A DNA stretch of 64,000 bases, from assembly GCA_963765895.1 (NCBI GenBank), contig CAVXZB010000025.1, positions 1-64,000 on the forward strand, in the 5' to 3' direction. Below, one piece after another: positions 13,034 to 63,830 of this stretch (positions within the stretch are counted from its first letter, which is position 1; each line of letters starts with the position of its first letter). This DNA is from an uncultured Nitrososphaeraceae archaeon. Its GTDB lineage: Archaea; Thermoproteota; Nitrososphaeria; Nitrososphaerales; Nitrososphaeraceae. The position numbers and the translations under genes were made by a program. The notes under the pieces are model-generated. The model saw only the letters and a list, made by a program, of their open reading frames with translations. It had not been told where the DNA came from and did no database searches.

Positions 13034-13294
13034 AAATTGATATCGCTGGATAATAGCAATTAGTCGATGTGAATCAACATACTAATTCCGTTAATATGCA
13101 ATACGTTTAACACATCCGGATAACACCGGATTATTAACACATTCGGCATAATCATCCCAGGAATAGGATTATAATAAGATAGGAGCAATGCCAGATTATA
13201 AATACTATCTAAAATGCTGCGTCCTAGGTGTAGACTGATATCATAGGATAGTAATATAATTTATGTATGCTGATCATGAGGCGCGTACTAAATG
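13034..13294 (+). repeat. Dispersed non-coding repeat R, copy 1
   Basis: Contains TGCCAGATTATAAATACTATCTAAAATGCTGCGTCCTAGGTGTAGACTGA ... TTTATGTATGCTG ... GAGGCGCG, shared with the other copies. Confidence 0.9.
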
Positions 13295-13363
13295 CCTTAC
13301 GAAGTGGTCTCTCCACTGTCATCAGTGTCATTTATCGATAGTCTACCAGCAGACAAACATGCC

Positions 13364-14293
13364 TTAAATGATTGGGAGTTCCCAAGTATCATTTAAGTTT
13401 ATAGAACCATCAGATCCACCGAACAGAACTATACAATTTCTCTCGCTATCATATGCCATTGAATGGAAAGCTCTGACAGAAGGACCCATATTTTGTCGTT
13501 GTGTCCATAAAGAGCCCTTCCAATCCCAAGTGTCATGGTTCAATACAACTAGATTGATACCACCAAATAGTACAGCTCGACTACCAGTATATACCATATC
13601 TCCAGCCGCAAGAGGGCCAGGTCCCATATCTTGCACCTTGACCCACACACTATTCTTCATTCGCCATGTGTCCCCAAAAAAGTTCGTAAGATCGGCACCC
13701 CCAAAAAGAAGGATCGCTTTCTTAGAAGATTCGTATACCATTGAATGATGTGCACGTACAGATGGTCCAGTATCTGCGACTTGTATCCACTCAGTTCCAT
13801 CCCACTCCCAGGTATCATTAAATATAGAAGTTAGACTGCTACCTCCAAAGAGAATTATCTTTGACCTATCTGAATCATATGCCATGGCATGAGCTCCTCT
13901 AGGTGATGGTCCAGTATCCGCTATTTGCACCCATTCATTCCCATCGTATTGCCATGTATCACCTTTGACTACACTTCCATCGAAGCCTCCAAAGAGAATC
14001 AGCTTGTCTCTATGAGAATCGTATACCATCCTATGCAATGTTCTTGGCGATGGTCCAGTATCCGCGATCTGAGTCCATGTTTGATCTATCCATTCCCAAG
14101 TATCGTTTCTAGGTCCATCATTTATCGATCTTCCTCCAAAAGCTATTGTTTTTCTTGAGGTCGAATCAAATGCCATTGAAAACATATACCTTGGCGATGG
14201 TCCAATATCTTGTTTTTGGACCCATCTCCAAATTTCTGAAACCAATGTTATACAAGTATATTCTATATACTTATGAATTCTGGTTTTCTCCAC
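13364..14293 (-). CDS. Kelch-repeat beta-propeller protein
   Basis: Six repeats of GPSPR..MAYDS....ILFGG.......DTWEW. Confidence 0.9.
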   Translation of the reverse strand: MEKTRIHKYIEYTCITLVSEIWRWVQKQDIGPSPRYMFSMAFDSTSRKTIAFGGRSINDGPRNDTWEWIDQTWTQIADTGPSPRTLHRMVYDSHRDKLILFGGFDGSVVKGDTWQYDGNEWVQIADTGPSPRGAHAMAYDSDRSKIILFGGSSLTSIFNDTWEWDGTEWIQVADTGPSVRAHHSMVYESSKKAILLFGGADLTNFFGDTWRMKNSVWVKVQDMGPGPLAAGDMVYTGSRAVLFGGINLVVLNHDTWDWKGSLWTQRQNMGPSVRAFHSMAYDSERNCIVLFGGSDGSINLNDTWELPII

Positions 14294-14952
14294 TGATAAA
14301 GTATGAGTATATTTTTATTCTAAATGTGGCACGACCTCGAGTAAAGCAAACCTGTTTCATACTATAGTAAAGCTTATTAATATTGAGATCAGACATCCAA
14401 ACATGACGGATTGTGATGCTAATCGCTGTCATATATCATGCGATCCTGGACAGGGATGTAGATGCGTATATATTTACCAGTGCAGGCTTCACCAAATGGA
14501 CAATGCATATGTGAATGCTATGATCCCGAGGATAAGACTGGAAAGGTAACAGTAACGATAGGAGACGTTGTAAAATCTATACCAATTCGTAAATTCAAAC
14601 CAGGATTCAAAACAACTACCAGAACAAAAATGGATATCTGTACAGTAATTTTCTGGCATCAGCGCTTGCTGAAATCCTAGATAGAATCCTTCTGATAAAA
14701 TATTTGTTCCGGCAAACAATGCAGATGTCAGAATTAAATTGAGATCAAGAAAGAGTACGGTATCTCAGATAGTTAAATCTGCAGGTTTCATTCTAAAAAG
14801 ATAGTTAGTGGGCGTGCTAAATGATGTGCTGTATATAGACGATCCAAGTAATGATCGATACTAAAATGTCAGTCAATACTAAGAAAAGACCTTTTGAGAG
14901 ATTAAGATTTGTTATGAGATTAAAAGATAATTGACATACCTGCTTTGTACTA

Positions 14953-15393
14953 ATGAAAGTGCTTCCACATGTCATGAGAAATATCAACGAATTCAACATA
15001 TCTACTAGAAATTCTCTAGGATATGAAATATTGTACTCTGGTGTAAATCTCATACTCATGTTTGATTATAGACTAGCTTTTGATGTAGAGGTAACAAATT
15101 CAGATAAAGAAATCGAAGTTCTAATCGTGAGTAGAAAAGATGTACTGGCGTGGAAGGAAAATAGTGAAAGTAAAAGGCATGAAATTAACTCCTACTACAG
15201 CAGAAGTGGATTAAAAATTAATGATGTCTTTAAGCCTACTACAAGTGACGCATATGCATTTGTTCTAAACAATCGAAGATCTTCTATCAGCCAAGAAGTA
15301 AAAACAGTTGAAGTTATGTTGATTCATAATTGGCAACAGGAGGTAAAGGAGTCTCAATTAAAGGATCGCCCTAAAGAACAACAGATTAAATAA
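14953..15393 (+). CDS. Hypothetical protein
   Basis: 146-aa beta-rich ORF (YAFVLNNR). Confidence 0.5.
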   Translation: MKVLPHVMRNINEFNISTRNSLGYEILYSGVNLILMFDYRLAFDVEVTNSDKEIEVLIVSRKDVLAWKENSESKRHEINSYYSRSGLKINDVFKPTTSDAYAFVLNNRRSSISQEVKTVEVMLIHNWQQEVKESQLKDRPKEQQIK

Positions 15394-16089
15394 CGATATC
15401 GAAGTTATGTCTTCATTTCAAGAGACATCAAACTACTCATTCTTCTAAGATGATATTTCTGGAAAGTTATATTTTTCTATACTGCTGAAGCGACCAAAAT
15501 CGGCATTATAGAAAAATAGATTTTCAAGAATCTATATTTACCATTATTAGTTAAAATTGCTAACTTGATTCTTTAAAAAGATGTCTATTCGGTGTGCGCC
15601 ACCGACTATCCCCTATCTTATAATCAGGCTGAAGAAAAGACCAAATATAACCATAGAGAATCCTCTTCATTTATCCGAGGTTCAATGGCATATAGGGATT
15701 TCATATTTAAATTGTTAAAGTATTATTGTAGCGTGACCAATTGATCGCTCTGTTTCCATCATATGAGATATAATTATCTTATGTTATTAGTTGCCCTTTA
15801 TCGTCCTGGTCATCATTTTCAGTTGCAGTAGTTTCGTAGTTATCTTTTTGTAAAAAAATTTCGCATATCTGTTATTCCCCTGAAATGCATATAGTTTTGC
15901 CATGCCTTCCGTATTTTTTTATAACTTCCACGAAATTGTTTAGTAGAAGTATTGACCACTTGCCTTTTCAGAACTGGTTTGCAAGAGTACCTCTTACGGA
16001 TGTTAAGGGTATGCTAACAGAAACATCCCTATTCCACTAAAAATATATCGAACGGGAACGGAAGTCTATTATCGTAGTCGATGTTGTAG

Positions 16090-16668
16090 TCAATTGAATT
16101 CACAATTGCCGGAAGGTACCTCATGAAATGCGCAATGTCCAACGGCAATTACATAGAATCCTACTCTAGTCAATTGCGATTTCCATAAAGCTGCAATATC
16201 GGCCTTTAAGGTAAGTTGCTTTGTATTACTATCAAACTCTGCTGGCAATACACTATCGACTCCCATTCCGTTTGGTGTATCTTGAGAAGTTATAGTATTT
16301 GTGGTCATAGATGTGATTGCAGCTGGTTTTTCCTTCCAAATTGGACCTATATTTCTGATAACTAGTTGATCTCTCGCCCATTGCCTAAAATTACCATCCG
16401 GACCGTTAAAATGTATTAATGCTACTCCTGAACGAATTACCATGTCTTTGCCATCACCAGTTTTTATTGTCAACTGTTGTGGGTGATCAATTGCAAATGG
16501 AGTTATTATCGCGTTTGCGCTATGGTGCTCGATGCTGAGTATTAGTATTATCAAGAATAAGATTACTGCTGGATACGCTATTATGAGAATTTTTGGAAAA
16601 TCTCTCATTATATCTGATTTATCAGTTGTTTTTTGATTATTTATATGTACTCTTGCCAAATTTTTCAT
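16090..16668 (-). CDS. Secreted or membrane-anchored hypothetical protein
   Basis: N-terminal hydrophobic helix followed by SANA. Confidence 0.6.
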   Translation of the reverse strand: MKNLARVHINNQKTTDKSDIMRDFPKILIIAYPAVILFLIILILSIEHHSANAIITPFAIDHPQQLTIKTGDGKDMVIRSGVALIHFNGPDGNFRQWARDQLVIRNIGPIWKEKPAAITSMTTNTITSQDTPNGMGVDSVLPAEFDSNTKQLTLKADIAALWKSQLTRVGFYVIAVGHCAFHEVPSGNCEFN

Positions 16669-18311: not shown

Positions 18312-19263
18312 GGCTATGTAGAAAACATCATCAATATTACAAGATTAGTCAGTCTATGCATATTGTAGGTGATACATCTAAATGATAACTCTCTGTTCTG
18401 CATTCTAGTCAATCTAGACATAAGATTCTCTCCAAATAGTCGTTTTATAACTGATATTATGGTTTCATCTTTGTTTCGTTGATTGTACAGCAATTTGGAG
18501 TAACCACGCTTCATCTGCTTTCTGTACTTACCATGTGTTCTCCACATCGGTACATGTTCATATCGAGCAGGAATAATACTGAATGCATGTAAGTCCTCTC
18601 TTACGAGAAGGTGATTATCTTCACTATCGTAACCCTTATCAGCTGTAACTACAGATAATGGAAGAATATTTGATGTCCTTGTTATAATTGGCCTGAAATC
18701 TACATTATCATGCCTTGTTGGAGCTCGTCTTATCTTAATTGTACATATGATTTGTTGTAATACATCTACTCCAATAGATAATTTCGCATATTTTCTTCTC
18801 AATTCTGTTCGATCAGTATAATATTGTGATGCATGAGTTATCTTAAATCCTGTTGAATCTATTCCTGCAAAGATATGCTTGGTACCACTAATTACAATGA
18901 ATGACGAAATTATCTTTTCAAGCAATGAATTATTAATTCTATCTATCTGTAAACTTTTGCAATGTTGTAAAATGAGGAATACGTGACAACCGTAGAAATG
19001 ACCTTAGGTAATAGGCTTCAATTAACCACTCGACAAACATTCTATAACTCTTACCTTCATACTGTCGTATAGCAACTAGAACTATGTGCTGCCATATTGT
19101 AAATATGTGATTACTTTTCCTGTTAGAAAATAGAGGAATCCTTGCATGCTTCAAAACACGGAACATAGTACCTGCAAGTCTGACGTACATTGATTCTTTC
19201 AATAGACTATTGGTATTATACTCTTACAAAGCTTTGACTGTATGAGATGGTTTCTACACAGCC
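18312..19263 (-). mobile_element. IS5-like insertion sequence, 952 bp
   Basis: 18-bp TIRs GGCTATGTAGAAAACATC and GATGGTTTCTACACAGCC (16/18 match). 8-bp TSD TCAGTATC at 18304-18311 and 19264-19271. Confidence 0.92.
18314..19202 (-). CDS. IS5-like DDE transposase, frameshifted by a 4-bp ATAG duplication near 18940
   Basis: IPHFTTLQKF, GIDSTG, TADKGYDSE and YNQRNKDETIISVIKR motifs. Confidence 0.9.
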
Positions 19264-19475
19264 TCAGTATCATCAACATCAAATATCTTCGTGGTTCCTC
19301 CCTGACTCATGCATTCCTCAGTGAATTCATAGATATGCCTTGTCAGCGCTTTGATTGCCCCTGATACTATAAGCGGCATCATGCTGTAGTGACCAACTGC
19401 CCCAGGAGGATGCCCGTTCAGGATTGCTGCCGTTTCTATATCACTCTTCGTTGTTACTTTGAATGGATATCCCAT
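19264..19475 (-). pseudogene. Hypothetical gene interrupted by the IS
   Basis: With the IS removed, the frame continues DTEVLLDSLLKKYYIN* on the other side. Confidence 0.45.
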
Positions 19476-19762
19476 TTCTACTGAAATATCGTCTGATTCC
19501 GATGCTTCCCCCTTTCAAACTTTCATCATCGTTGAGTGTTAGGCTCGGCGGGACCATCCACGAGTTCTTCTTAGACATTACTAAGCTGAATTGTACCAAT
19601 AGTGGAGTAAATACTCGGAAGTATCAAATATTGAGATACTATTTCCGCAGGTATTCCTAAATCTTTGATAAGACGATTGATATCCGTAATATTCAAGCTA
19701 TTAACAATGCAGTGCCGCTTCCTGACAATAATAAATATACGAGATGATGTGAATAGGATTTT

Positions 19763-21259
19763 ATGAATTCCAGTATCAACAGAGCATTAATATTTCAAGG
19801 AGGCGGTTCGCTTGGTGCATACGAAGCTGGTGCCTATAAAGCTATTAATGAAGAACTTTCAGCATACTTTAGATCAGTAGGCAGAGGAAACGAGCCAATA
19901 TTTCATATCGTATCCGGAACGTCAATAGGTGCAATAAATGCTCCTTTACTAGTAAGCTATGTAAAGGAAAATAAAACATGGGAAGGATCAGGCGAAAGGC
20001 TTGTCGAGTTTTGGGAATATCTGTCTACTCAGTCGTCTGTTGAAAACATACCATACTTTACAAACTATTGGGATTCTTGGCGTAGATTAGATAGACGAAT
20101 TGCTTCAGGAGAATCTGCCAGAAGATACTTTAGCACTAAGGAATTTATTTTTAGAGGAGTTCCCCATGTGTTTATACCAAAGACACCCTTGCCAGACAAT
20201 AGATTTTTTGATCCTTCAAATACGTGGTATGTCTATGACAATAGACCATTAAAAGAAAGCTTGGAAAAGTTTGCCAAGTTTCCTATTTCCACAAGCTTCG
20301 AGAATAATGAACCAAGACTCTTGCTAGTTGCTGTGGATGTACAAGAGGCTACTCCTGTGGTTTTCGATAGCTACGAAAAAGAGGATGGAACAAGGAAGAC
20401 TGAATATGGCAAATATGGTAGAGTTAAATTTATAGATTCAGCGAAGAATCAGAATGAGAATCAGGAGAAAGAGGCATTTGAGCACGTTATAAGATACGAT
20501 GATGGCATAAAGTCAGATTTCGTTTTGGCCAGCTGTTCAGTTCCAGTTAATTATGACTATACTAGGATAAATGTGGAAACCCGAAACCTGGCCTTGGGAG
20601 AAGGACGAGACGAGAAAAATGTAGCCATGGAGATTAATAATCGGCCTTCAAATGATGAAAGTAATAGCGACTTACGCATCTTCTGGGACGGTGGACTATT
20701 AGCTAATACACCTCTAAGACAGACCTACCTTGCTCACAAGCATTATTGGCAGCGAGTTAGAAAATTAGAAGATAATATACCAAGTCTCAAATTTGGTATA
20801 ATAAATCTCCATCCGATTAAACAAGAATATCCTTCTTATGATTATGATGGCGTTATTGACAGGAAGAACGATATCATATACCATGATAGAACAGAATTTG
20901 ATGAATATGTTGCAGTTCTTATATCTGATTATGCAACACTCGCAGACCAGCTAATTAAATTAGCCGAAGGGAATGGTATGAGTAAAGAAGCACTCCAAAC
21001 AATTTTGAATAGAAAAGCTAAGGCTACTTTTTTAGCCACGGGCAAGCATGGGAGATATATTGATTTAGTAAAGGGTAGAGTAGATATTGATTTTGTTGCT
21101 CGCTTGGAACGAAAGAACGACAGTCATACTATTTCAAATAAGACATTTGACTTTTCAAAAACTACGGTCCGACAGCTAATTCAAGACGGATATGACGAGA
21201 GTAAGGAACAGATGAAAGCAATAGTTGCTAGTTTAAAGAGGGAATTGTCTGGCACATAG
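19763..21259 (+). CDS. Patatin-like phospholipase
   Basis: QGGGSLGAYEAG, GTSIG nucleophile elbow and WDGG catalytic Asp. Confidence 0.9.
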   Translation: MNSSINRALIFQGGGSLGAYEAGAYKAINEELSAYFRSVGRGNEPIFHIVSGTSIGAINAPLLVSYVKENKTWEGSGERLVEFWEYLSTQSSVENIPYFTNYWDSWRRLDRRIASGESARRYFSTKEFIFRGVPHVFIPKTPLPDNRFFDPSNTWYVYDNRPLKESLEKFAKFPISTSFENNEPRLLLVAVDVQEATPVVFDSYEKEDGTRKTEYGKYGRVKFIDSAKNQNENQEKEAFEHVIRYDDGIKSDFVLASCSVPVNYDYTRINVETRNLALGEGRDEKNVAMEINNRPSNDESNSDLRIFWDGGLLANTPLRQTYLAHKHYWQRVRKLEDNIPSLKFGIINLHPIKQEYPSYDYDGVIDRKNDIIYHDRTEFDEYVAVLISDYATLADQLIKLAEGNGMSKEALQTILNRKAKATFLATGKHGRYIDLVKGRVDIDFVARLERKNDSHTISNKTFDFSKTTVRQLIQDGYDESKEQMKAIVASLKRELSGT

Positions 21260-21360
21260 TCACTTTTCAGAATCTAAAATTCCTGTTTTGTTGATATCCT
21301 CTTCTATAACGACCTTATGAGAGGCCTGAGAATAGGGCAAGCCATACCAAGAGCATTATA

Positions 21361-21972
21361 TTGATAAAGCAAGATGTTCGCAACGGGGAACCGGAAACTA
21401 TGCCATTAGAAAGTTTCCCGGTGAGTTCCCCGTCTGAAAATGGTCCAATTCACGCTCAATTTGAGCACAAACTGGGAACCGGGAAACTCGGGGACTTGCC
21501 TTCATCTGTGGCAGGTGAAAATGAAAATGAAGTGGCATCATCTAATGGGCTAGAAGTACCGGTAAGTTCCCCGACTTTCCAGAGTTCCCGTTCTGGCGAA
21601 AATCACGCTCAATTCGCTAGCGATACAAACGGGAACCTGGCGGGGAAGTCGACGGGGTACGCGAGTTCATGTTCCCCATTACACCACGCTTCGTTATCAA
21701 GTACAAACAGCGAGGCAGCCAAAGTCATCTCTGTAACCGACTTCTTTTATGATGATCCAACTATGCCTTACGTAGCGCTACCAGACCATGAATTGGACCA
21801 GAGCCCATGTTGTCATATTATATCTATAAAGGATGGATACTATTACTGTAGGTTGCATCCTGAAATAAAGAACGTACATCTGGAATCCATAGAGCACCAC
21901 ATCAAGCACAAAGATCCAGCGACGCATAAATCAGAGTTATTAAAATTGTCCAAACTTACTCATAACAGCTGA
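21361..21972 (+). pseudogene. 3' remnant of a replication-type protein: iteron-coded low-complexity linker plus Cys/His Zn-finger-like tail
   Basis: GGGAAC/GTTCCC clusters at 21384-21676. Tail YYYCRLHPEIKNVHLESIEHHIKHKDP is duplicated at 27077-27340 and degenerate near 63420. Confidence 0.55.
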
Positions 21973-22111
21973 GATCCTATTGATAGGTAAAAATATCAGG
22001 ATTTGATGAACTTAATATCTTCGACTTTCCAAATCGATGGATTAGGGCTAGCCCTTACAGAAAACCACAATGAGTTCATCTTGTTATACTGTGATGAAAG
22101 AGCTCACAATC

Positions 22112-23132
22112 TTATAGCCGACCGATCAATTGCATGAGTCGCGTCTGCTCATCATCATCATCACCATCATCATCATCACCATCATCATCATCACCATCAT
22201 CACCTGCACCTGTTGTGTGCACTAGCGATACCATTAGCTCGTCAAGTCCCGCCGCCAGAAGTTCGGTAAGCCGAGCAACCACTATTGATTCATTTCCAGA
22301 AATAACCAAGCTATCTACAAGAGCATCGGGTACCGCCTGGTCTGATGTCAATGAAAAACCTGCATTAGAGAACATGGCAGCATAGAAAGGGATCTTAGCA
22401 TAAAAGTCAAGCATTTGATGTCCTGCGGCTAGGACAGCATGCCGATCTTCGGTAACTGCTACCGGTACATATGCCACCAATGGAGGCGGTGATCGTCCAA
22501 CTGCAGCTGCTGATGTACGTAAAGCTGGAATTCCAGTATTAAGCAGATACGGAACAGGACATACCCATGTAAGGGCTCCATCGGCAATTTGTCCAGCTAA
22601 TTGAAATGCTGATTTTCCTAGCGTTGAAATAAGTATGGGAATCTGCGACGTGCGGGGTAATGTGGCTTTAACGTTAAAGAAGTGTCCATGATGATCGACC
22701 TTCCCATGCCAGAGTGCAGCACGCAGGTACTTCCAGATATTCGCGCAGATGGGCTAACGGCGTTTTCTGTTGCAGACCATAAATATCTTCTATAATAAAG
22801 CGGTGACTGGGGCCTATTCCAAGACGCAATCGACCAGGTGCAAGATCGTATAAAGCTAGAAGCTCCTGAGCTAGGACCAAGGGATGACGTGGATAGGTTG
22901 GTGTGATCGAGGTTCCTAGGCGTACTGTAGATGTTCTTGTTGCTGCAGCTGCAAACATCGTTAATACATCTGGCCAAACAGGTGGTTGGGCCATCCATAT
23001 CTGTCGCACTCCGGCAGCTTCTGCTGCAACAATAGTTTTGACCGCAATCGCCGCGTTAGAACCATGTACAATGAGTCCGACGCGTTCTCGTGTCGGCGGA
23101 AGACTTGAAACTTGAAGACTCTGATCCTCCAT
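22112..23132 (-). CDS. LLM-class flavin-dependent oxidoreductase (frameshifted)
   Basis: AEAAGVRQIW, AAAATRTSTVRLGTSI..TYPRHP, GRLRLGIG and AGLDE motifs. Confidence 0.85.
22150..22203 (+). repeat. 15-bp tandem repeat (ATCATCATCATCACC)n encoding a GDDDD tract
   Basis: About 3.5 units visible directly. Confidence 0.85.
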
Positions 23133-23423
23133 TAAAGATTCACCTCGAAGTGTAACCGTTTATTCTCTCAGGGTAGGATATCATGCTGAAGTTTCATTCA
23201 AAATCTACTATTTCAACTTTTAAACAGTACAGTTCGGTTTAACTGGTTTGATAGGTGGCGTAATTTAATGCAACTAGATTTTGGTTCTAACTACGTCAGG
23301 ACGAATAGATTCCTCTAGTTAATCTTAGATGATAGATTGGTAGCAACTGTAGTAAATGACCATGAGTAATTTGAAGTCATTGATGAGCCATCTGTAGCTT
23401 TAACTATGGCCGTATCGACCCAT

Positions 23424-23686
23424 CAAATTGATAATATCTATAGATAGTAGCAGTTAGCAGATTTGAGTCAGCTTATTAGTTCTGTTAATATCCAAATTTA
23501 TAATAAATTGGACAATGTCGGATTCATATGAAGTACAGCAAAATCATACCGGAAAAGCTGGCATTCAATACAGATATGCGGCGTGCCAGATTATAAATAC
23601 TTCTAAAAAAGACAGATCAGATGTATAGATCTGTGCCTCTGGGTCAAGACAAAAAATTTATGTACATTTGTCTAGAGGCGCGCGCC
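23424..23686 (+). repeat. Repeat R, copy 2 (diverged)
   Basis: ATATCTATAGATAGTAGCA, GTGCCAGATTATAAATAC, AAATTTATGTA and GAGGCGCGCGCC in the same order and similar spacing. Confidence 0.8.
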
Positions 23687-24320
23687 TACCACACCAAAAA
23701 GTAAAAAGGAAAGTTAGGATAATAATAATAAAGAGGTGGCTAAGTTACGGTTACGGTCATAACTGCTCCCATTGAAGCACTGTTAGTGATAACGCTGCCC
23801 TACTTTATAGCAGCCATCGCAACGATCATTTATACAAATAAAGAAACCAGAAAAGCAAAAGCAATCACGATATCAATAACAGTAAAGACATAGTCAACGA
23901 TAACAATGATGACCAAATATTACTGCACAGACTTGGAAAAAGCCATAGATTATGATGATATTCGGTACTATAAGCTAGAAGACGATAAGTTTAATGCAGT
24001 CAAAAAGCCTGGTTGGTATATACGTGTAATTTTTCCAAATTAAGAGATCAAATGTATAGATGATGGGCCAGGTATAACGATAAAAAGTAGATACATGTCT
24101 ATCATGAGGCGTGCCAAATAAATGTTGTAAAGATAACAATTCTTTAGTGGAGCGCCCGGCCCATTTCATTCAGTTTACGACGTCTTTTGCGATCATGTTT
24201 CTATGATGTTGGAGAATTGGTGGTGGATCTGCTGTTCAGACATTTTTCAGCAATTTATCTGAAGACTTGGCAGAACCTAGCAGAGGAATATTGAAATAAT
24301 TTGGATATCCCACTATAAGA

Positions 24321-24916
24321 ATGAGTACATTAAGACATAATCAATCTGTATTTGTATCAGGTCTTCTGGTTCTTATCATCGTTATGTTATACAATTATTC
24401 AACAAATATTGACACATTAGTGGTAATATCGGTCTCGGACCATCAAGCCAATGCAGCAAATAATTCTATAGATCAGATTATAAAGCAAAGGAACATTACT
24501 TCAAACCAATCATCTGATCTAAGAGACATTAGAAAGCTAACCTCAGAAGAAGTTCAGCTCCTTAGGGAGCTAGGCCAAGGATTTAACAGAACGACCACAC
24601 AGAGTCAATTTGCAGCTTTAGGTATCTTCCTTTTAGGCATTTCCTTGATTATTTATGGATTAAGATTAACTGTGAAGGCAACAGACAAACAAACAAGCAG
24701 GTATTTAAAGCCATGATATGGGCATTAATTGTCCCTGTTGTTTCACTTATTGGGATTTATCAAATTGGAATATTGTTGGGGAGCCCCATACTTCTTTATA
24801 AATTGAACGAGCCATTTTTCTTCGTATCTCTCCTACTCTTAATTCCCGCAGTTATAATCATAATCCTGTTACTAGCTGAGAAGAAATTGGTAGGTAGTTT
24901 ACATCGAAAGGATTAA
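24321..24916 (+). CDS. Membrane protein (frameshifted)
   Basis: Overlapping ORFs with about 4 hydrophobic segments. Confidence 0.6.
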
Positions 24917-25162
24917 CAACATCAATCAACCCGAATAGAAATACATGTTGCAATAATGACACGATAATGCGTAGCAAGATATTGATACAAATATTCTGCT
25001 AAGCGACTGCCGGAACGCGCATCATGTGGTTTACTTTACCTCTTGTTATTTGTGCAGCGAATTGTAAAGGATTACTTCTATGGTGCCTTAAAGCAAATCT
25101 ATATCACGAGTCGAGTTTAGTGATAGTAATGAGCCACTTATCAAAATTGTTTAAATCGTAGA

Positions 25163-25447: not shown

Positions 25448-25478
25448 ATTAATTAGATCTGATGGTTCATCTACCACT

Positions 25479-26509: not shown

Positions 26510-26702
26510 TTAAATTTAACTCCGAGTGACGATTTCTGCGATAGGGTTCCAAGCTCAGATATGTATTGCTTCATGTCTTACTTTATTTGTCTGATTCACT
26601 TATATCCTCATGTGACTCACTTGATACTTATAACAAGAGATTAGTATTAGTAATATCTACGGTTGTGTAGAAACTTATTCCCAAAGTTCAACAAGTCTTT
26701 CG

Positions 26703-26935: not shown

Positions 26936-27076
26936 ACTTCCATAGTCTAAATTCAATTAGATTATATCGGGCATTCAATCAAAGCAGGAATAATTTATCC
27001 GACCCGCTCTGGTTCATGTTCCCCCGTTACACGACGTTTTACCAAGTGGTATAGGACGCTAGAATCAGCTCGAGAG

Positions 27077-27309
27077 CCGACTTCTTTTATGATGATCCAA
27101 CTATGCCTTACGCAGCACTACCAGACCATAAATTAGACCAGAGCCTATGCTGCCCTATTATAACAATGAAGGATAGATACTATTACTGTAGGTTGCATCC
27201 TGAAATAAAGAACGTACATCTGGAATCCATAGAGCATCATATCAAGTATAAAGATCCAGCGACGCATAAATCAGAGTTATTAAGATTGTCCAAACTTACT
27301 CATAACTAG
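27077..27309 (+). pseudogene. Second copy of the Zn-finger-like tail
   Basis: Near-identical DNA to 21737-21970. Confidence 0.8.
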
Positions 27310-27310
27310 T

Positions 27311-27624
27311 GGATCCTATTCATAGGTAAAATTATCAGGAATTGTGGACCTAGCAGGAATTGCCTATTCTATGGACTGACATCCATAGATAGTAGCATAC
27401 TAGTCAATGTGAATCAAATTCTGTTAATAGATAATATCACACACATCGGACAATATCGGATTTTTTAATACGTCCAACATAATTATACCGGAAATAGCGT
27501 TATAATAAGATAGGAGTGGTGCCAGATTATAAATATTATCAAATGCTGCGTCCTATGTGTAGACCGACGTCCCAGGATAGTGATAAAATTTATGTGTGCT
27601 GTATATTATGAGGCGCGCTAAATG
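27311..27624 (+). repeat. Repeat R, copy 3 (longest form)
   Basis: Runs from GATCCTATTCATAGGTAAAATTATCAGG to TTATGAGGCGCGCTAAATG. Confidence 0.9.
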
Positions 27625-33938: not shown

Positions 33939-33964
33939 ACATGAGCGCATACATCAAGCAGTAT

Positions 33965-34099
33965 ATCATACGATACCGGATTTTTCATCAATTCGGGATA
34001 ATTATATCGGAAAAAGCGTTATAATAAGATATGAAAAGTGCCAGATTATTAATATTATCAAAAATGCTGAGTCCTATGTGTAGACTGACGTCCCAGGAC
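33965..34099 (+). repeat. Repeat R, copy 4 (truncated at both ends)
   Basis: CGTTATAATAAGAT..GTGCCAGATTATTAATATTATCAAAAATGCTGAGTCCTATGTGTAGACTGACGTCCCAGGA. Confidence 0.85.
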
Positions 34100-41556: not shown

Positions 41557-41617
41557 CTGCTGTGGCCTAGGTATAGAGACTGACGTCCCAGGATGGCGAT
41601 ATACAATTATGTGTACC
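41557..41617 (+). repeat. Repeat R internal fragment
   Basis: TGCTGTGGCCTAGGTATAGAGACTGACGTCCCAGGATGGCGATATACAATTATGTGT matches the R core. Confidence 0.75.
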
Positions 41618-49214: not shown

Positions 49215-49424
49215 ATGTGCAGGTTACCATTAATCACCATTCCAATGATGAAACCAATGACTGATATAGAAAATGAGAAAATCATACCACCACCATTAAA
49301 GTTAATGACCAAAAGTGAGGTAGTAAATGACTTGCTTAGACTCCTAGATCTAGTCCAGAAACATGCTGATAAAGAAGGGTGTCACCACTGCCTTGACCTA
49401 CTAGAATCTGTTTTTGAGCACTAA
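49215..49424 (+). CDS. Small hypothetical protein with CHHC
   Basis: Short ORF directly upstream of R copy 5. Start uncertain. Confidence 0.4.
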   Translation: MCRLPLITIPMMKPMTDIENEKIIPPPLKLMTKSEVVNDLLRLLDLVQKHADKEGCHHCLDLLESVFEH

Positions 49425-49503: not shown

Positions 49504-49761
49504 AAAATTGATATCTATAGGTAGTAGCAATTAATGAATGTAAACCAATTGTTTAATTCAGTCAATCACTAGTAAGTTTTATCATATCGGATAACATCGG
49601 ATTTTTTAACATATCCGGCCTAACTATCTGGAAATAACGTTATAGTAAGATAGGTGGCATACCAGATTATAAATATTATCAAAAATGCTGCTTCCTAGGT
49701 GTAGACTAAGAACCCAGGATGATGAAAAATTTATGTATGCTGTCTATCTGCAGGCGCGCAC
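49504..49761 (+). repeat. Repeat R, copy 5
   Basis: AAATTGATATCTATAGGTAGTAGCAAT ... CCAGATTATAAATATTATCAAAAATGCTGCTTCCTAGGTGTAGACT ... CAGGCGCGCAC. Confidence 0.9.
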
Positions 49762-49886
49762 GCACCCCAAACGGGTTTAATGTGTCATCGATGATAATAA
49801 TAATAATAATATACAGTTCACTTCGAAGAGGGACACACATGCTTTTCTAATAAATAATACCAGATTTTATTGGAGCATTATGTTTT

Positions 49887-52161: not shown

Positions 52162-53049
52162 TTGGGATTATTTAATGACTACACTGACATAGAACATAAG
52201 GTGAAAACAGAACCATGTAAGCATGAGTTATCTCTTAGCGTAGTTATTCCCTTTCACGCTGGAAGTGATATGCTTGCAAAAACTGTCATAAGTCTGACTC
52301 AACAAACTTATCCAAAAGATCGAACTGAGGTCATTATAGCAGTTGATGCCAATTATGACGATGCAAAATTGATCACAAAACAGTACAAAGAGAAATAGAC
52401 ATAAAATTGGTAACACTTTCTAACAATGGCTGGGGGGCCGCAGAGCTCTAGAAATGCTGGGATTTATGTATCTAGGAATGATGTTATTGTCTCTCTTGAC
52501 TGCGGACATGATATGTCCTCCAAATTTCCTAGAGTCGCACATGGTCTGGTTTCATAAATCAACTAAAATTGCAACGATTGGACCTAAGAAATTTGTGGAA
52601 GCTAGCGAAATAGAACCTCGGAGATTGTTCGCAACTTCACATTGATATCGTCACTCCCAGAGATCCATAGTGTTTCAAATAATTTAATAGGTTCTCGTAA
52701 AGACAAGAGAATCCCCGAACTTGAACAACTAAAGATTCACCCTTTCCCAAGCAATTGTTTTCATGGAGGAAATGTAGCATATTGGCGTGAAGACGCTCTC
52801 GATGTTGGACTGTGGGATGAAACTTTCAACGGTAATTATGGTTACGAAGACATTGAATTTGGACAGCGTCTGTTTGAAAAAGGTAGAAAGCTAGTTCTCG
52901 CATGCGATGCGATAACATATCATCAGGAGAGTAATTTTGTTTCACGTAATGAACGACGTAAGGGTTTGTCTATTAATAGAACAAAACTTTATGAATGTTA
53001 TCCTGCACTTGGAAGATTCCGAAGAGATATTCTAGGGTCAACCCAGTGA
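52162..53049 (+). CDS. GT2 glycosyltransferase (frameshifted)
   Basis: SVVIP, QQTYP, ARNAG and LD.D across frames; GLWDETF..YGYEDIEFG. Confidence 0.85.
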
Positions 53050-54450: not shown

Positions 54451-54508
54451 AATTATTTGGTGCGCACCTCATGATAAACAGCATACATAAATTTTATAAT
54501 CATTCTCT
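54451..54508 (-). repeat. Repeat R terminal part, inverted
   Basis: Reverse complement reads AAAATTTATGTATGCTGTTTATCATGAGGTGCGCACCAAATAATT. Confidence 0.75.
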
Positions 54509-55639: not shown

Positions 55640-55833
55640 TTAGTAGATGTGATAAACAGATTTGCTTATGTTTCAACGGCAGTTACTAGGGATATGAAAC
55701 CGGTCGCAACGGGCCATTTAGTCAGGACAGGTTTGCGAAGTGTGGCGATGCTTATGAACGCGGCTTTATGGCTGGGTGTCTATCGGTAGTAGGAAATGAT
55801 AAAGAGGTATGTAACTTGGCGGAGGATGCGTGA
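55640..55833 (+). pseudogene. YxxG[FY]xxG-family fragment
   Basis: Alternate frame reads GYETGRNGPFSQDRFAKCGDAYERGFMAGCLSVVGNDKEVCNLAEDA*. Confidence 0.5.
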
Positions 55834-55839
55834 GAGTAA

Positions 55840-56215
55840 ATGAAAGTTTTGTTAAGCGCAGTTGTAATACTAGTGCTAGTGATAGGCGCGCCCTTAGTAT
55901 ATGCAAATCAGGCAGTTGTATAAGCAAGAAGCCGCTATCCCTAGTGACTCTAATGGTGTGCCTTGTACATTCGGTCCGAATCACGATGAATGTAAAGACA
56001 CTGACTTGCAAGGCAGACCGTGTACAGGTATTGTCGGCAGTTCAAATTATAGTGACTGTGTCTATGCCCAAGGATTCAAAACCGGCTATGACGACGCAAT
56101 AAATGGCCGATATGATAAAAATGCATATGATCCTGACACAACTCTGGCCGAAGGATATTTCGCTGGCTGGCATCAAGGCTGCCTAGATTCCGGAAGAAGT
56201 GATTGCAACAAATGA
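55840..56215 (+). CDS. Secreted Cys-rich YxxG[FY]xxG protein (frameshift after the signal peptide)
   Basis: MKVLLSAVVILVLVIGAPLVYA, then YAQGFKTGY and EGYFAGWHQGC. Confidence 0.65.
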
Positions 56216-56547
56216 AAGTTTTGTTAACCGCATTGGCTGTTCTGATACTAATGATAGGCGCGCCCTTACTGTATGCAGAAACAGAGTATCAGGCAGGATT
56301 TAAAGAAGGACAAAGGTTTTCCAATGACAAATTCACTGGTAAAAACTTAGGAAAAGAGTATGATATAATCACCCAACATCCACATCAGTTTTACCTAGGA
56401 TGGCTGGACGGATTCTGTATCCTAAATCCGCACACGGGAAGTGATGCAGATGAATTTACATTCAGTTGCTCTGATTCAAGATTTGGAGCACATATTGGTG
56501 ATCCCCAGGCACGCCATCCCTCGAACTTAGGCACAGAGGTTCGGTAA
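56212..56547 (+). CDS. Secreted YxxG[FY]xxG protein
   Basis: MKVLLTALAVLILMIGAPLLYA|ETEYQAGFKEG; FYLGWLDGFC. Confidence 0.7.
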   Translation: MKVLLTALAVLILMIGAPLLYAETEYQAGFKEGQRFSNDKFTGKNLGKEYDIITQHPHQFYLGWLDGFCILNPHTGSDADEFTFSCSDSRFGAHIGDPQARHPSNLGTEVR

Positions 56548-56552
56548 AGGAA

Positions 56553-56933
56553 ATGAAAAAAGTAATTAGCTTAATGGTGATCGTGGTTCTAATGATAGGC
56601 GCGCCATTAGCATATGCAGAAACGGCCTATCAGTCAGGATTTAAACATGGGGTGGCTGACGCGAATCATAAAGCTCCCGAATGTGCGCCTCATAAATTCC
56701 CATGTTCTCGCCCTACCGATTATATACACCAGCCAGGTAATGGTTTTGACCACCACACAACCGCATTTGTTAACGGCTATATAAAGGGCTGGTGTTTAGC
56801 GCATCATGGCGGTGGAATAGACGGAAATGATGATAATACATACTTTCCTGTTAGTTTCGACTGTGATGATGGTCCAATCTCTGCATACCCTCTACCAATG
56901 GACTGGAATACTAGCCTAAGTTCGGCGAACTAA
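56553..56933 (+). CDS. Secreted YxxG[FY]xxG protein
   Basis: MIGAPLAYA|ETAYQSGFKHG; FVNGYIKGWC. Confidence 0.7.
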   Translation: MKKVISLMVIVVLMIGAPLAYAETAYQSGFKHGVADANHKAPECAPHKFPCSRPTDYIHQPGNGFDHHTTAFVNGYIKGWCLAHHGGGIDGNDDNTYFPVSFDCDDGPISAYPLPMDWNTSLSSAN

Positions 56934-58431: not shown

Positions 58432-59106
58432 ATGAATAAATTTATTATTTTATTTTTGATTGTTGGCTTGGCAGCTTCTATGGTTTCGGCCAGTGGTTTT
58501 ACTGTGAGTCTGGTCGAGGCTAAGGATTCAGATAGTGGCGGCGGAGGCAGAGATAGTGGCGGCGGAGGCAGAGGATAGTGGCGGCGGAGGCAGAGATAGT
58601 GTCGCGGCGGAGGCAGAGATAGTGGCGGCGGAGGCAGAGATAGTGGCGGCGGAGGGAGTGATTCGGGGTCAGACTCCGGCTCAGGTTCAGGTTCTGATAA
58701 TAGTAACAGTGATAATTCTAATAGTGATACTGGAAGCGATAATAACAACGACGTAAATACACAAGACCAACCAGATCAACAACCACAGACGCCAGAAGAT
58801 ACAAATCAAAATCCAGATACATCATCATCATCATCAATAACACCGACAGAACCAAAGCAAATCTTCCCAAATGTAATGGTTCGTTTCAAGACTTGTGCAA
58901 CTAAGAATGGTGATGTCTGCAAGGCTGGTTCGACAGATGATAAATGTGAATGTTCTGACAGTATGAGCGACTGTCCTAAGAGTCCAGCCCTAGAGAAAAC
59001 AGCAGTAAAAGGAGAACCAGATAAGAATTGTTTATTCCATCCAGAGTTAAGTAAATGTAAGTCAGATAATGGTAAATGTCCTAAGGGCTTTTTCCAGAAT
59101 GGATAA
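58432..59106 (+). CDS. Secreted low-complexity protein with a Cys-rich C-terminus (frameshifted)
   Basis: MNKFIILFLIVGLAASMVSA..VEA, then Gly/Ser/Asp repeats and CLFHP..KC..GKCPKGF. Confidence 0.65.
58531..58654 (+). repeat. 21-bp tandem repeat GATAGTGGCGGCGGAGGCAGA, about 6 units
   Basis: Directly visible; encodes DSGGGGR. Confidence 0.9.
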
Positions 59107-60120: not shown

Positions 60121-60199
60121 CGTTTTGTTCTAATTCTGGGTGATTAGTCGTAATGGTAGTCCAGATATTATCAACTTTAAATCTAAAGCGTATATCGTG

Positions 60200-60470
60200 T
60201 AATGCGCGTTTGTCTGTTGGTAGACTATCGATAAATGATAGCGATACACAGACGAGTCTACAGTACGGTGTTTGGAGCGCTATTTGTTGGTAGACATGCG
60301 GATAAATCTTTTATTGCGAGATGTCAATTTATACATTGGATGTAGCATTTTCCATAATATTTATAATCCCCCGTGTGGCACATTTATATTAGAAGTCACT
60401 TTTTCCGGAATACTTATCCCGGATCTGATGGAATTTCCGATATAATCTGATTTGGATTACAAGAGACAAT
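60200..60470 (-). repeat. Repeat R, inverted diverged copy plus downstream motif
   Basis: TAGCATTTTCCATAATATTTATAATC and TTCCGGAATACTTATCCCGGA match the reverse complement of R. 60200-60245 matches the reverse complement of 13320-13365. Confidence 0.7.
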
Positions 60471-60474
60471 TAAT

Positions 60475-60710
60475 TACATGACTTATCCAACACACTGTAC
60501 AGGTACGTATTTTCTTTCTTTAAGTTCTCCAAACTTATCGGTAAATAGCCCTTCTTCTTTGCAGAATTAATGTTATACCTGATCATATAATTAGGATCGA
60601 AGTCCAATTGCCTTAACGGATTGCATCTATCAAACCACTCTTTAATATATCAGAAGCCTCTTCTGGTGAATATTTTCTAATATTAATAAGGTAAGGTGCC
60701 AGAACACATT
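60475..60710 (-). pseudogene. Second PriX-like primase C-terminal remnant
   Basis: VLAPYLINIRKYSPEEASDI..EWFDRCNPLRQLDFDPNYMIRYNINSAKKKGYLPISLENLKKENTYLYSVLDK. Confidence 0.7.
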
Positions 60711-62520: not shown

Positions 62521-62791
62521 GACATAGTGTATCCCATTTTTTTTTGTAAAAAGTCAGTTAAAGATTTTATTAGTTTTTTTATTGCATTGCCAATCAGAAT
62601 CGCAGCAGAATGAAAAATAGCTTATACAGGACTGATCTTGTCTTGCACAGCTGATTTGATTAGTAACGTCGAACACAAGCAGGCGCGCCCCTCAATCCAT
62701 CTCATATGTCCAGTTTGAATCGCCAGTGAAGGAAATCAGAGGCATATACAATTGTGTGATTTATCTGAAGCTTAAATCTGATCTCATATTA

Positions 62792-62915
62792 ACACCCAGG
62801 ATACCCGGATTATTTTCAACTCTTGAGAAGAATTTAACTTATCAATGGAATTAGATATTACATATATCAATGAAGTGTAGTTAGAATACAAAATTATCTC
62901 GGGTATCTCGGGTGC
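62792..62915 (+). repeat. CCCGGG inverted-repeat element, copy b
   Basis: ACACCCAGGATACCCGGA ... CTCGGGTATCTCGGGTGC. Confidence 0.8.
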
Positions 62916-63140
62916 AACTCTACGGAATATATCTGAAAGTCAAGTGCTCTTCTAATTATATTATGTTGGTATGACCTAAATAAATGGACAAGTTTGGAGC
63001 GGGCCCGTCGGTGTGTGAATCAAATTTGACCTAATGGAAGGCCCTTTTGATTGCCGGGCATAATGATGAGAACAAAAATACGATTGATACCAGCGGTTTG
63101 ACTGCCACGTTAAGATTGACTTGATGTGTAGATATTTATT

Positions 63141-63263
63141 ACACCCGGGATACCCGGGATAATCTTGTATTCTGATGGTCCTCTATATTCCCTCTTGTAC
63201 TGTACTTTTAATATATCTTGAACTCTTCCTTAGGTAGGAAAATAACCCGGGTATCCCGGGTGT
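63141..63263 (-). repeat. CCCGGG inverted-repeat element, copy c (perfect 18-bp IR)
   Basis: ACACCCGGGATACCCGGG and CCCGGGTATCCCGGGTGT. The interior is reversed relative to copies a and b. Confidence 0.9.
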
Positions 63264-63541
63264 GATGACTTTTTTTATCCAATTCTACAACGGATCTTAT
63301 GATTACACACCAAACCTCTACAACAATTACGTATTCTTGACTTCAATGCTGAAGGGCATGGGCATTTGCTCAGGCAATGTTATACAATAACTGCATAAGG
63401 GCAGGAACATCTACCTAGCAATTACATCCTGAATTAGGGAGCGTACATCTCGAATCAAAAGAGCTTCCCATCAATACAAGGATCCGACTGTGCATAGACT
63501 AGAGTTATTATTAAAGTCCCCAAACTGATTCACGACTATTT
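63264..63541 (+). pseudogene. Third, degenerate Zn-finger-like tail
   Basis: GATGACTTTTTTTAT (DDFFY) and TTACATCCTGAATTAGGGAGCGTACATCTCGAATC (LHPELGSVHLES) match 21737-21970. Confidence 0.65.
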
Positions 63542-63830
63542 GATTCTATTGATAGGTAAAACTATCAGACTTAGTGAATTTTCCAGAATTGCCTATTCCA
63601 TAGACTGATATCTATAGATAGTAGCAACTAGTCGATACAAATCAACATACTAATTCCGTTAATATGCAATAAGTTTAACACATTGGACAACATCGGATTT
63701 TTAACACATCCGGCATAATTATCCCGAAAATAACGTTATAATACAGATATGAGAGATGCCAGATTATAAGTATTATCAAAAATGCTGCATGCTACGTGTA
63801 GGTATACTGATTATGAGGCGCGCACCAAAT
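63542..63830 (+). repeat. Repeat R, copy 6
   Basis: GATTCTATTGATAGGTAAAACTATCAG ... TGCCAGATTATAAGTATTATCAAAAATGCTG ... TTATGAGGCGCGCACCAAAT. Confidence 0.9.

Follow-up and report, generated by a model that had tools for sequence, protein, structure and literature searches.

What is the non-coding repeat, here called R, that recurs along a 64,000-nucleotide window (the whole stretch of DNA that was analysed) from an uncultured Nitrososphaeraceae archaeon? Our tentative answer, to which we give a little less than an even chance, is that R is a conserved cis-acting backbone region of integrative plasmid-like elements, possibly their origin or replication-control region. On our best reading, the element family carrying R is restricted to the genus and is of the thaumarchaeal 'cryptic integrated elements' kind. 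The sequence-only reading had taken R for a non-coding cis-acting part of a mobile-element family. This much is upheld by its position near integrase and replicase genes and by one insertion at a tRNA gene.

R is a family of 215 to 265 bp. With an HMM built from five window copies, nhmmer gave 107 matches at E<1e-3 in the 4.9 Mb genome, spread over 36 of its 88 contigs and eight of them on the window's contig; the assembly holds near-duplicate contigs, so these counts are not all independent. The family lies far above chance expectation. R was found in all six other genomes of the genus but in none of 34 from other genera; of 53 soil-metagenome contigs with the R core word, 43 contain it. The 5′ boundary (TTGATATC...) is the sharpest, with 704 of 1967 in-register pairwise alignments beginning within 20 nt of it. 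The 3′ ends fall into two classes, near model position 160 to 220 or 240 to 280, and the GAGGCGCGC end is restricted to the long class. The 'one fixed end' proposed earlier does not hold, as both ends are defined and the junctions of paralogous segments are scattered through R (positions 0, 29, 55, 66, 85 to 94, 101 to 144, 176 to 188, 225 to 261, and 304). The conservation profile is blocky rather than uniform. Within R are two palindromes, one of 12 bp and one reading TCCGG-N10-CCGGA; ATCGGA-type words spaced by one helical turn; and an AT-rich stretch of 50 to 60 bp.

Every copy named in the sequence-only reading was recovered, by repeat finding (at 13.0, 23.4, 27.4, 34.0, 49.5, and 63.6 kb) and by nhmmer. 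The order of its motifs also stood, with the ATCGGA spacing corrected from 10 to 11 bp; the starts proposed at 27311 and 63542 did not, since about 60 nt there are a spacer common to one subfamily only. Full-length copies lie on the plus strand at 13035..13295 (model 6-265, long 3′ class, E 2.1e-75), 23428..23692 (model 5-265, E 6.3e-65), 27372..27619 (model 4-259, E 2e-68), and 49505..49768 (model 5-265, E 2.6e-69). The 4.5 kb ending 35 nt past the 3′ end of R23428 is 96 to 98% identical to C59 and C26 and unrelated beyond. A further plus-strand copy at 63601..63830 (model 4-263, E 5e-63) shows in alignments an internal deletion in its 3′ third, and that at 33962..34098 (plus strand, model 77-218, E 4e-27) is without the first ~76 positions, carrying instead another upstream sequence common to the C42 and C48 copies. 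On the minus strand, an inverted partial copy at 60317..60460 (model 76-215, E 1.6e-13, also seen in inverted-repeat pairs) is preceded by a second repeat family, S. A solitary 3′-terminal piece occupies 54455..54506 of the same strand (model 215-263, E 3.1e-5; inverted pair 27574-27618 / 54462-54506), and C84 holds the same piece plus 1.8 kb of common flank. A weak plus-strand fragment at 41558..41616 (model 185-240) came up only in a window-only nhmmer search (E 1.2e-4), and additional weak pieces were detected at 24033-24115, 40509-40566, and 46843-47025 (E 0.001 to 0.007).

Replication genes lie among the neighbours of these copies. The earlier reading had allowed that R might be unconnected with genes of replication or recombination; the window itself contains a frameshifted gene for an MCM-type replicative helicase and two C-terminal remnants of a replicase. 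The helicase gene (9655..11752, plus strand; Pfam MCM E 6.4e-23, MCM_lid E 1.7e-8) is split into two overlapping ORFs and lies 1.3 kb upstream of the R at 13035..13295, in the same orientation. The replicase is a P-loop protein of ~790 aa related to PrimPol-helicase replicases. One remnant, a 203 aa fragment at 21361..21972 (plus strand), matches P0001 residues 572-788 at 71% identity, and R does not follow until 1.46 kb downstream. The other, at 27076..27306 (plus strand; 87% identity by tblastn, and alignments), is an orphan: the last ~77 codons, a Cys/His-rich tail, have kept their reading frame, the remainder of the gene is missing, and R27372 begins 66 nt 3′ of it.

This arrangement recurs. 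A same-strand R lies 62 to 162 nt downstream of the last ~75 replicase codons in 17 of 21 loci, and three more tail loci, which are mutual paralogs, have R at ~1.45 kb. Six further loci with the tail followed by R were found in relatives and metagenomes. The tail forms the upstream context of 26 of the 68 R copies with an intact 5′ end (38%), and each of the seven PrimPol/MCM loci that have an R no more than 8 kb away shares the orientation of that R; two of these loci are near-duplicates. On C75, a 398 aa ORF stops 63 nt before an R; it corresponds to the C-terminal half of 786 to 788 aa proteins (72 to 73% identity, 96 to 100% coverage) and is related to PF09250 Prim-Pol proteins in Nitrososphaera and Nitrosocosmicus records. 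The tail has a dN/dS of 0.25 with dS 0.81 (45 pairs), and R in nine of the ten tail loci used shows a JC distance of 0.37. By this comparison, R changes at a lower rate than the synonymous sites next to it (0.37 versus 0.81).

R also clusters. Another R lies within 10 kb of 70% of the copies, compared with 32% when copies are placed at random (at most 50% in 200 trials), and an integrase or replicase match lies within 5 kb of 29%, compared with 11.7% (maximum 24% in 500 trials). Of 51 pairs of neighbouring copies no more than 20 kb apart, 41 share their orientation (10 opposite, p=1.5e-5; median spacing 4.7 kb); R thus punctuates co-oriented blocks of accessory genes, in agreement with the earlier claim that it punctuates blocks of cargo. 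In four loci, an integrase stop codon faces R convergently at 45 to 61 nt. In one element with an intact PrimPol-MCM gene of 881 aa, R precedes an integrase-like gene, also intact and 496 aa long, by 362 nt; the C42 and C47 copies have in common with this R the 0.4 to 0.66 kb downstream of it. One block of 1,982 bp, with R and a hydrolase gene, is missing from a 91 to 95% identical locus in the sister genome G004, which thus shows the empty site. A direct repeat of 12 nt flanks this block, which lies at the 3′ end of a tRNA-Arg gene (Rfam tRNA, 32 bits) and is a demonstrable insertion.

Which function, then, accounts for R? A structured non-coding RNA gene, one of the options raised earlier, would suit its length, its conservation, and some local inverted repeats. 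Nevertheless, Rfam gave no matches at gathering thresholds over the window and none at E<=1 over R13034. RNAalifold returned zero pairs and zero energy on both strands for 26 non-redundant genome copies, and zero pairs for 19 copies drawn from three sources. Fold energies are no better than shuffles (z-scores -0.67 and -1.35), pairing in three local inverted repeats is 78.8% versus 78.9% in shuffles, and the covariation score of 0.209 compares with 0.199 when shuffled, 100 of 500 shuffles being as high. Together, these nulls speak against R as a structured RNA, and we consider an RNA gene hardly credible. A coding role fares no better: as stated earlier, R has no conserved ORF, and across 26 non-redundant copies the longest stretch free of stops measures 34 to 66 aa. 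That R is a non-autonomous transposable element spreading by itself, whether MITE-like or some other small mobile sequence, is very improbable. R is indeed small, multicopy, intergenic, genus-restricted, and defined at its ends. However, as the sequence-only reading had noted, terminal inverted repeats are absent (five window copies), as is target-site duplication (31 copies; common word 5.06 nt versus 4.96 in mismatched pairs). R-only matches are old, with no recent burst: their best identity is 81% at the median and 86.7% at the 90th percentile, against 99% for copies of a true IS in the window. Furthermore, the copies are clumped in islands, no site empty of R alone was found in the genome, and no partner transposase with R's ends was found: Y1 and RT family searches of the genome gave no matches to a HUH transposase or reverse transcriptase, and its one TnpB is decayed. 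The one-ended rolling-circle element proposed earlier also finds no counterpart, with zero genome matches to Y1, Y2, and Helitron-like families, the controls being silent for the latter two.

Two DNA-based alternatives deserve more attention. R could be the arm region of an attachment site for the elements' tyrosine integrases, with integrase-less units of R plus cargo mobilized in trans and accreted side by side in the manner of CIMEs or integron cassettes, a proposal that we find rather doubtful. The co-oriented arrays, the sharp ends with unrelated flanks, and the two geometries in which R abuts integrase genes would fit it, as would the several short direct and inverted words in ~250 bp, likewise a property of complex attP sites such as that of lambda. 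GGCGCGC, at the stop codon of one integrase subgroup, is the word that ends long-class R and occurs 260 times in the genome compared with ~70 expected, and the tRNA-Arg unit lacks an integrase and has its R 159 nt from the junction. On the other hand, breakpoints at many positions in R give no single crossover, no collinear direct repeat of at least 12 nt brackets the C57 or C24 element, and the repeat at the tRNA insertion is made of tRNA sequence, not of R. Moreover, GGCGCGC marks the left border of the orfB54 unit in just 2 of ~14 loci examined, only 7 of 107 R copies adjoin an integrase or share their context with one that does, and the same gene end upstream in 38% of copies is unlike cassette arrays. 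R could otherwise be a portable promoter/operator, transcription-factor sites followed by TATA boxes that would drive the downstream gene or an antisense control RNA; this we judge unlikely. Three boxes of R resemble the TATA-like hexamers of the host (TTATAA, TAAATA, and ATTTAT), which in the genome are most frequent at -35 to -26 relative to start codons, and similarity in both 3′ classes fades a few tens of bases past such a box. A same-strand gene begins ~50 to 60 nt after R in C59 and C26, and the hydrolase gene of the tRNA insertion 371 nt after it; short R-core pieces also occur in RNA-library contigs, where DNA carry-over is possible. Such words are, however, easily matched by AT-rich DNA, and R often sits between convergent gene ends (replicase tail or orfB54 versus integrase or cargo). 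Downstream of the 49 copies whose 3′ end is intact, the next called gene runs against R in 27 cases and with it in 22, at 97 to 1140 nt and in no register; these, like our other statements on R neighbours, are approximate because ORF calling was crude, with only 60% of the genome assigned to genes and at least one gene adjoining an R missed.

We return to an origin or replication-control region as our tentative reading. Ancestrally, R would have stood directly after the replicase stop codon, with the last ~75 codons travelling with it, and between the replicase side and the integrase where the latter survives. R would act as double-stranded DNA, not as RNA; its palindromes, ATCGGA-type words, and AT-rich stretch suggest the layout of an origin, or of a region controlling replication, to which proteins bind. 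The replicase, perhaps via its tail, may bind the repeats and open the AT-rich part, as in pRN1. The ~100 chromosomal copies would be relics of many integrations, of which the tRNA-Arg case is the one shown, and of segmental duplications. Since R is the best-conserved stretch common to different element lineages, recombination between copies could shuffle flanks and build co-oriented arrays. Several observations count against an origin. The 107 copies are far more numerous than the 21 replicase-tail, 13 PrimPol/MCM, and 47 integrase loci. Of the 68 copies whose 5′ end is intact, 42 follow something other than the tail, in some cases a small ORF in which hhalign detected no similarity to it (probability 0.15%). 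A conserved ORF of 54 to 55 aa, orfB54 (49257..49421, plus strand; alignment and genome loci), precedes R49505 by 84 nt and is followed by R at 77 to 86 nt in 7 of its 14 genome loci. In the C57 element, R does not directly follow the replicase but lies 3.7 kb away from it, upstream of the integrase; in the tRNA-Arg insertion, 159 nt separate R from the att side and no replicase is present; and the TATA-like boxes would fit a promoter equally well.

Among known systems, MITEs and small intergenic mobile repeats of prokaryotes resemble R in size, copy number, and intergenic site, but R is without their TIRs, TSDs, recent near-identical copies, and partner IS. In systems with the attP arms of tyrosine-recombinase elements, in CIME, and in integron attC arrays, co-oriented repeats part blocks of accessory genes, integrases lie near, and integrase-less units can be flanked by att repeats. 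R islands resemble these in their co-oriented repeats between accessory blocks and nearby integrases. However, R has no fixed crossover and is not spanned by a hairpin-forming imperfect palindrome, its upstream gene end is often the same, and no R-derived direct repeats bracket the blocks. Tandem and tRNA-targeted integration are documented for thaumarchaeal elements, and the cryptic integrated elements of Krupovic et al. 2019 carry integrase and PrimPol/MCM/helicase genes, often at tRNA genes and with short direct repeats, and in some cases in tandem (PMC6563490, in part). In the available text of that paper, the passages on these elements describe no shared non-coding repeat, and the terms 'MITE' and 'origin of replication' are absent (PMC6563490). 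R islands share this gene set and, in one case, a tRNA-Arg insertion with a 12 nt repeat. For pRN1, the available part of PMC4234260 places the replication element within 166 bp downstream of orf904, as a ~100 nt stem-loop acting in cis. R has no long stem-loop or significant fold, and its components are short repeats and palindromes together with an AT-rich stretch; unlike the pRN1 origin, it is present in ~100 chromosomal copies, and its own role in cis is putative. Both are nevertheless alike in being a short non-coding region directly 3′ of a primase/helicase-type replicase gene (PMC4234260, in part).

The evidence places R, a non-coding repeat of ~215 to 265 bp, as a backbone part of integrative plasmid-like elements, fixed beside the 3′ end of the replicase gene and constrained as double-stranded DNA. 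Repeat detection in the window recovered it as the direct repeat families D1, D3, D5, and D8 and the inverted piece I4, and its six plus-strand copies align in the constant motif order that the sequence-only reading had described. At E<1e-3, an HMM of five window copies gave 107 nhmmer matches, spread over 36 of the assembly's 88 contigs (G000; 4.9 Mb, 88% complete, 2.4% contamination, fragmented, and partly redundant); eight of the matches are on the window's contig. A window-only nhmmer search adds a weak fragment at 41558-41616 and three other weak pieces. The 107 matches are not all independent, because some contigs are near-duplicates (C13/C44, C26/C59, C42/C60, C52/C7/C63, and C40/C76), and this inflates the copy counts. 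Contig pairs, including the C15/C84 end, share 92 to 99.9% identity over kilobases; such near-duplication may reflect a strain mixture or large recent duplications.

To set the boundaries of R, copies with 1.5 kb flanks were aligned pairwise by BLAST, which gave 1967 in-register alignments. Of these, 704 start within 20 nt of one point, TTGATATC..., the 5′ start of R, and the right ends cluster at model positions 160 to 220 (1117 alignments) and 240 to 280 (225 alignments). Thus, both ends are defined, and the single fixed end claimed earlier is not borne out. The 3′ ends form a short and a long class, with GAGGCGCGC as the end of the long one. On average, 25 to 29 other copies align within R, 8.4 at positions 200 to 250, and 2.7 at 250 to 300; upstream, the mean declines gradually (11.5, 9.2, and 6.7) over the first 150 nt. 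The lack of terminal inverted repeats and of a target-site duplication noted earlier holds: no repeat pair links the two termini in five window copies, and in 31 full-length copies the longest word shared across the ends averaged 5.06 nt versus 4.96 nt in mismatched pairs. Nor was any conserved ORF found in R, as had been stated, and a called ORF overlaps it in 4 of 107 cases.

By upstream context, the 68 copies whose 5′ end is intact divide into groups of 26, then 7, 6, 4, 3, 3, 2, 2, and 2 copies, with 13 singletons. In the commonest context, R comes after a gene whose conserved, Cys/His-rich 3′-terminal tail of ~75 codons stops 62 to 162 nt before it. Searches with tblastn located 21 such tail loci. 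A same-strand R follows at 62 to 162 nt in 17 of them; in three mutual paralogs, one of which is window 21736-21966, the distance to R is ~1.45 kb, and the contig of the remaining locus lacks R. The same order recurs at six further loci in relatives and metagenome contigs. The sole nearly whole tail gene, on contig C75, carries one internal TGA. In this gene and in two full-length metagenomic proteins of 786 to 788 aa, the tail follows a P-loop domain, and more distant relatives of the tail-bearing protein contain the Prim-Pol domain PF09250; therefore, the tail gene is the elements' replicase. The sequence-only reading would have been refuted had genome-wide copies shared no breakpoint and shown no link to replication or recombination genes; such a link is seen in the 17 of 21 replicase-tail loci with adjacent R. 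Genus-wide, matches to the tail far outnumber those to the remainder of the replicase, and no loci related to the full-length replicase were found among the genome contigs searched. Pfam returned no family in the replicase half and its neighbours, and an AlphaFold2 model of the tail (6-row alignment; mean pLDDT 45.6) was unusable. The second upstream context is orfB54, a small ORF of 54 to 55 aa found at 14 loci, 7 of which then have R at 77 to 86 nt. A kinship of orfB54 with the replicase tail was rejected (hhalign probability 0.15%).

With segmental duplicates set aside, the closest R-only match of each copy is 81% identical at the median and 86.7% at the 90th percentile, about equal to the best identities to other species (80 to 84%). 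By this measure, the copies are old, in contrast to the 99% identical copies of the IS at window 18312-19263. The ten tail copies compared gave a dN/dS of 0.25 and a dS of 0.81, and R in nine of these ten loci a JC distance of 0.37, with 0.45 for the spacer; the gap between 0.37 and 0.81 is indicative only, as distances are easily underestimated when non-coding DNA is aligned. R is conserved in blocks. Taken together, old divergence and blocky conservation argue for constraint on R in many element lineages and against a burst from one master copy.

The sequence-only reading had also offered a structured ncRNA as an alternative. Rfam gave no match over the window at gathering thresholds and none over one R copy at E≤1. 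RNAalifold predicted no pairs either for 26 non-redundant genome copies on either strand or for 19 copies drawn from the window, from relatives, and from metagenomes, and single-copy folds were not better than dinucleotide shuffles (z-scores −0.67 and −1.35). One R copy contains three local inverted repeats that do fold; across 19 sequences these were 78.8% paired versus 78.9% in shuffles, and covariation was 0.209 versus 0.199, with 100 of 500 shuffles at least as high. Since both pairing and covariation stay at shuffle level, these inverted repeats represent conserved DNA words, not helices. The ncRNA alternative thus fails, and as an explanation of R it is poorly supported and scarcely credible.

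By BLAST against 41 genomes, R was present in all six other genomes of the genus, at no more than 19 scored matches per genome, and in none of the 34 genomes from outside it, of which 18 belong to the same family and 16 to different families within the order. A 20-nt core word of R occurred in 53 metagenome contigs, 43 of them with nhmmer-detectable R and none of them circular. The sequencing runs containing the stretch carry the label soil metagenome, and the protein relatives have source names that indicate Nitrososphaeraceae. In low-depth soil-metagenome contigs, no transcription of R and no empty sites were seen, and the apparent R "joints" were other R copies. Two R words had no exact match in viral contigs, and R had no blastn match in plasmid and phage collections. 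Searches of the freely accessible literature, at the level of main articles, found no such repeat for Nitrososphaerales or ammonia-oxidising archaea.

The neighbourhood of R is rich in mobile-element genes: tyrosine integrases (47 tblastn loci, mostly fragments), a second integrase-like family of 496 aa, PrimPol-MCM and MCM replicases, and DDE transposases, together with many accessory or truncated genes. An integrase or replicase match lies within 5 kb of 29% of R copies versus 11.7% of random positions, and another R within 10 kb of 70% versus 32%. With near-duplicate contigs dropped, 41 of the 51 adjacent R pairs within 20 kb are co-oriented (p=1.5e-5; median spacing 4.7 kb), and R within 8 kb of PrimPol/MCM loci is co-oriented with them in 7 of 7 cases. 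At four loci, a short-class R converges with the stop codon of an integrase 45 to 61 nt away, and the integrase subgroup concerned ends in GGCGCGC. A core of the GGCGCGC type flanking the orfB54 unit was confined to two loci. On contig C57, an apparently intact element has R, then after 362 nt an integrase-like gene of 496 aa, followed by small ORFs, a PrimPol-MCM gene of 881 aa, and a DNA methylase; the sequence downstream of its R is common to two more copies, on C42 and C47. Copies that adjoin an integrase or share the C57 context thus number 7 of 107.

One insertion could be read from both its filled and its empty site. Around the R region at 144.5 kb of contig C19, the sister genome G004 is collinear on both sides at 91 to 95% identity and lacks 1,982 bp. 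In the junction alignment, a 12 nt exact direct repeat flanks the insert in G000 and is single copy in G004 (contig C161). This repeat overlaps the 3′ end of a tRNA gene on the minus strand (locus L075, 4881-4939; C19, ~144.88 kb), which the Rfam tRNA model scores at 32 bits against a threshold of 29; ARAGORN misses the gene, and its anticodon loop was read as CCU, that is, Arg. The insert carries R, 159 nt from the tRNA half, and on the same strand an alpha/beta-hydrolase-like gene, itself multi-copy, and no integrase. The empty site and the direct repeat in the tRNA show that R-bearing blocks enter by site-specific integration. Clean empty sites for R were not found within the genome, and genus searches around 451 kb of C84 and around window 19300-30000 yielded only mosaics of multi-copy segments. 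Degenerate tRNA-like remnants beside integrases were sought with the tRNA-Arg 3′ half, and nhmmer found only that half itself and two other tRNA-like sites.

Gene calls came from a home-made ORF scorer, by which coding density is low, at 60% of the genome and 53% of the window's contig. The window region looks like a decaying accessory island, with many gene fragments, among them those of a luciferase-like monooxygenase (22674-23132), a GNAT protein (36806-37324), an oxygenase (41802-42272), and a glycosyltransferase (52642-53049). An IS of ~950 bp with a DDE transposase gene (18312-19263; Pfam DDE_Tnp_1) has 99% identical copies on at least five other contigs, and its insertion here is recent, because C59 and C26 lack it in a paralogous segment of 98 to 99% identity. 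A second dispersed repeat family, of ~230 to 300 bp (26702-27000, plus strand; 60478-60704, minus strand), lies immediately upstream of some R units and has at least 25 matches at 75 to 82% identity in all seven genus genomes. An MCM-type replicative helicase gene (9655-11752) is frameshifted into two overlapping ORFs; the two ORFs before it, of an unknown family, are likewise found ahead of other replicase genes. Three tandem small genes (55830-56933) share their first ~68 nt at 72 to 81% identity (family D7), and their products have signal-peptide-like N-termini with GGCGCGCC. On both strands, low-complexity ORFs contain six copies of a 21 to 23 bp tandem repeat (58530-58679, family D6). The 144 bp units of a gene for a Kelch-repeat protein (13364-14293, minus strand) form DNA family D4 (13698-14225), and a Kelch-related remnant lies past the inverted R, at 60194-60245 (pair I3).

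What R does is best read, tentatively and at somewhat under even odds, as a putative origin or replication-control region, because it adjoins the replicase 3′ end, for which the crenarchaeal plasmid pRN1 is the nearest worked example. A live rival, if an unlikely one, is that R is an att arm of the elements' integrases, as its position beside the integrase in the four convergent loci and in C57 would suggest. However, the sole proven insertion is bracketed by tRNA sequence, not by R, and there is no single crossover: in pairs of loci with 250 nt or more of common flank on one side, similarity ends at many different points within R or shortly beyond it, so that a fixed crossover point was rejected. 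Such scattered breakpoints fit truncation and recombination between dispersed copies. A promoter or operator is also a live rival, of lower probability again. TATA-like hexamers peak 26 to 35 nt before start codons in this genome and R has three boxes of the same words; moreover, a same-strand gene begins ~50 to 60 nt past R in C59 and C26. Against this as the main role, R keeps no register with downstream genes and often lies between convergent gene ends, and by a crude ORF caller the next gene is on the opposite strand in 27 and on the same strand in 22 of 49 copies with an intact 3′ end. Origin, att, and promoter roles could coexist in one intergenic region.

The co-oriented arrays might conceivably represent cassette accretion, in which small integrase-less units of R and one or a few accessory genes, such as the 1,982 bp R-hydrolase unit at tRNA-Arg, are captured and reshuffled site-specifically by the islands' tyrosine integrases with R as the recognition module; we consider this doubtful. 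If true, Thaumarchaeota would have a functional counterpart to integron cassettes or CIMEs. To our knowledge, no genetic system exists for ammonia-oxidising archaea, nor has a replication origin or att site been defined for their plasmid-like elements. If R and the adjacent replicase form a minimal replicon, they would be a concrete basis on which to build a shuttle vector for soil Nitrososphaeraceae. As a marker, R at ~100 copies per genome traces the integrated elements, relics, and accessory genes that inflate these gene-poor genomes of 3.4 to 4.9 Mb, and its copies also mark where recombination reshuffles islands.

Among known systems, a MITE would have terminal inverted repeats, absent in five window copies of R, a target-site duplication, absent in 31 full-length copies, and recent amplification, at odds with the median best identity of 81%; the window IS at 18312-19263, a potential partner, shares nothing with R. 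A MITE is therefore poorly supported and very improbable. A rolling-circle or retro-element is poorly supported as well. For IS200/IS605 and REP/RAYT systems, the Y1 HUH family PF01797 had no match in this 88%-complete genome while control genomes were positive, and the hairpins of R, unlike their subterminal ones, are no better than shuffles. For IS91/ISCR/Helitron, PF04986 and PF14214 had no matches here and were likewise silent in every control genome, and for retro-copied elements the reverse transcriptase PF00078 had no match in the genome, with controls positive. Whereas integron attC combines a spanning hairpin palindrome with a fixed core crossover, R has no fold signal and scattered breakpoints. 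An attP of a tyrosine recombinase has core repeats that bracket the element; in contrast, no collinear direct repeat of at least 12 nt from R brackets the C57 or the C24 element, where the search gave two chance 12-13-mers, not collinear and without R. The long stem-loop required for replication from a pRN1-type origin differs from R, which has neither a long inverted repeat nor a fold signal. In pRN1, an element needed for replication lies within the 166 bp that follow the primase-helicase gene (PMC4234260). In position R is alike: a pRN1-type origin lies directly downstream of the replicase gene, as R does in 17 of the 21 tail loci.
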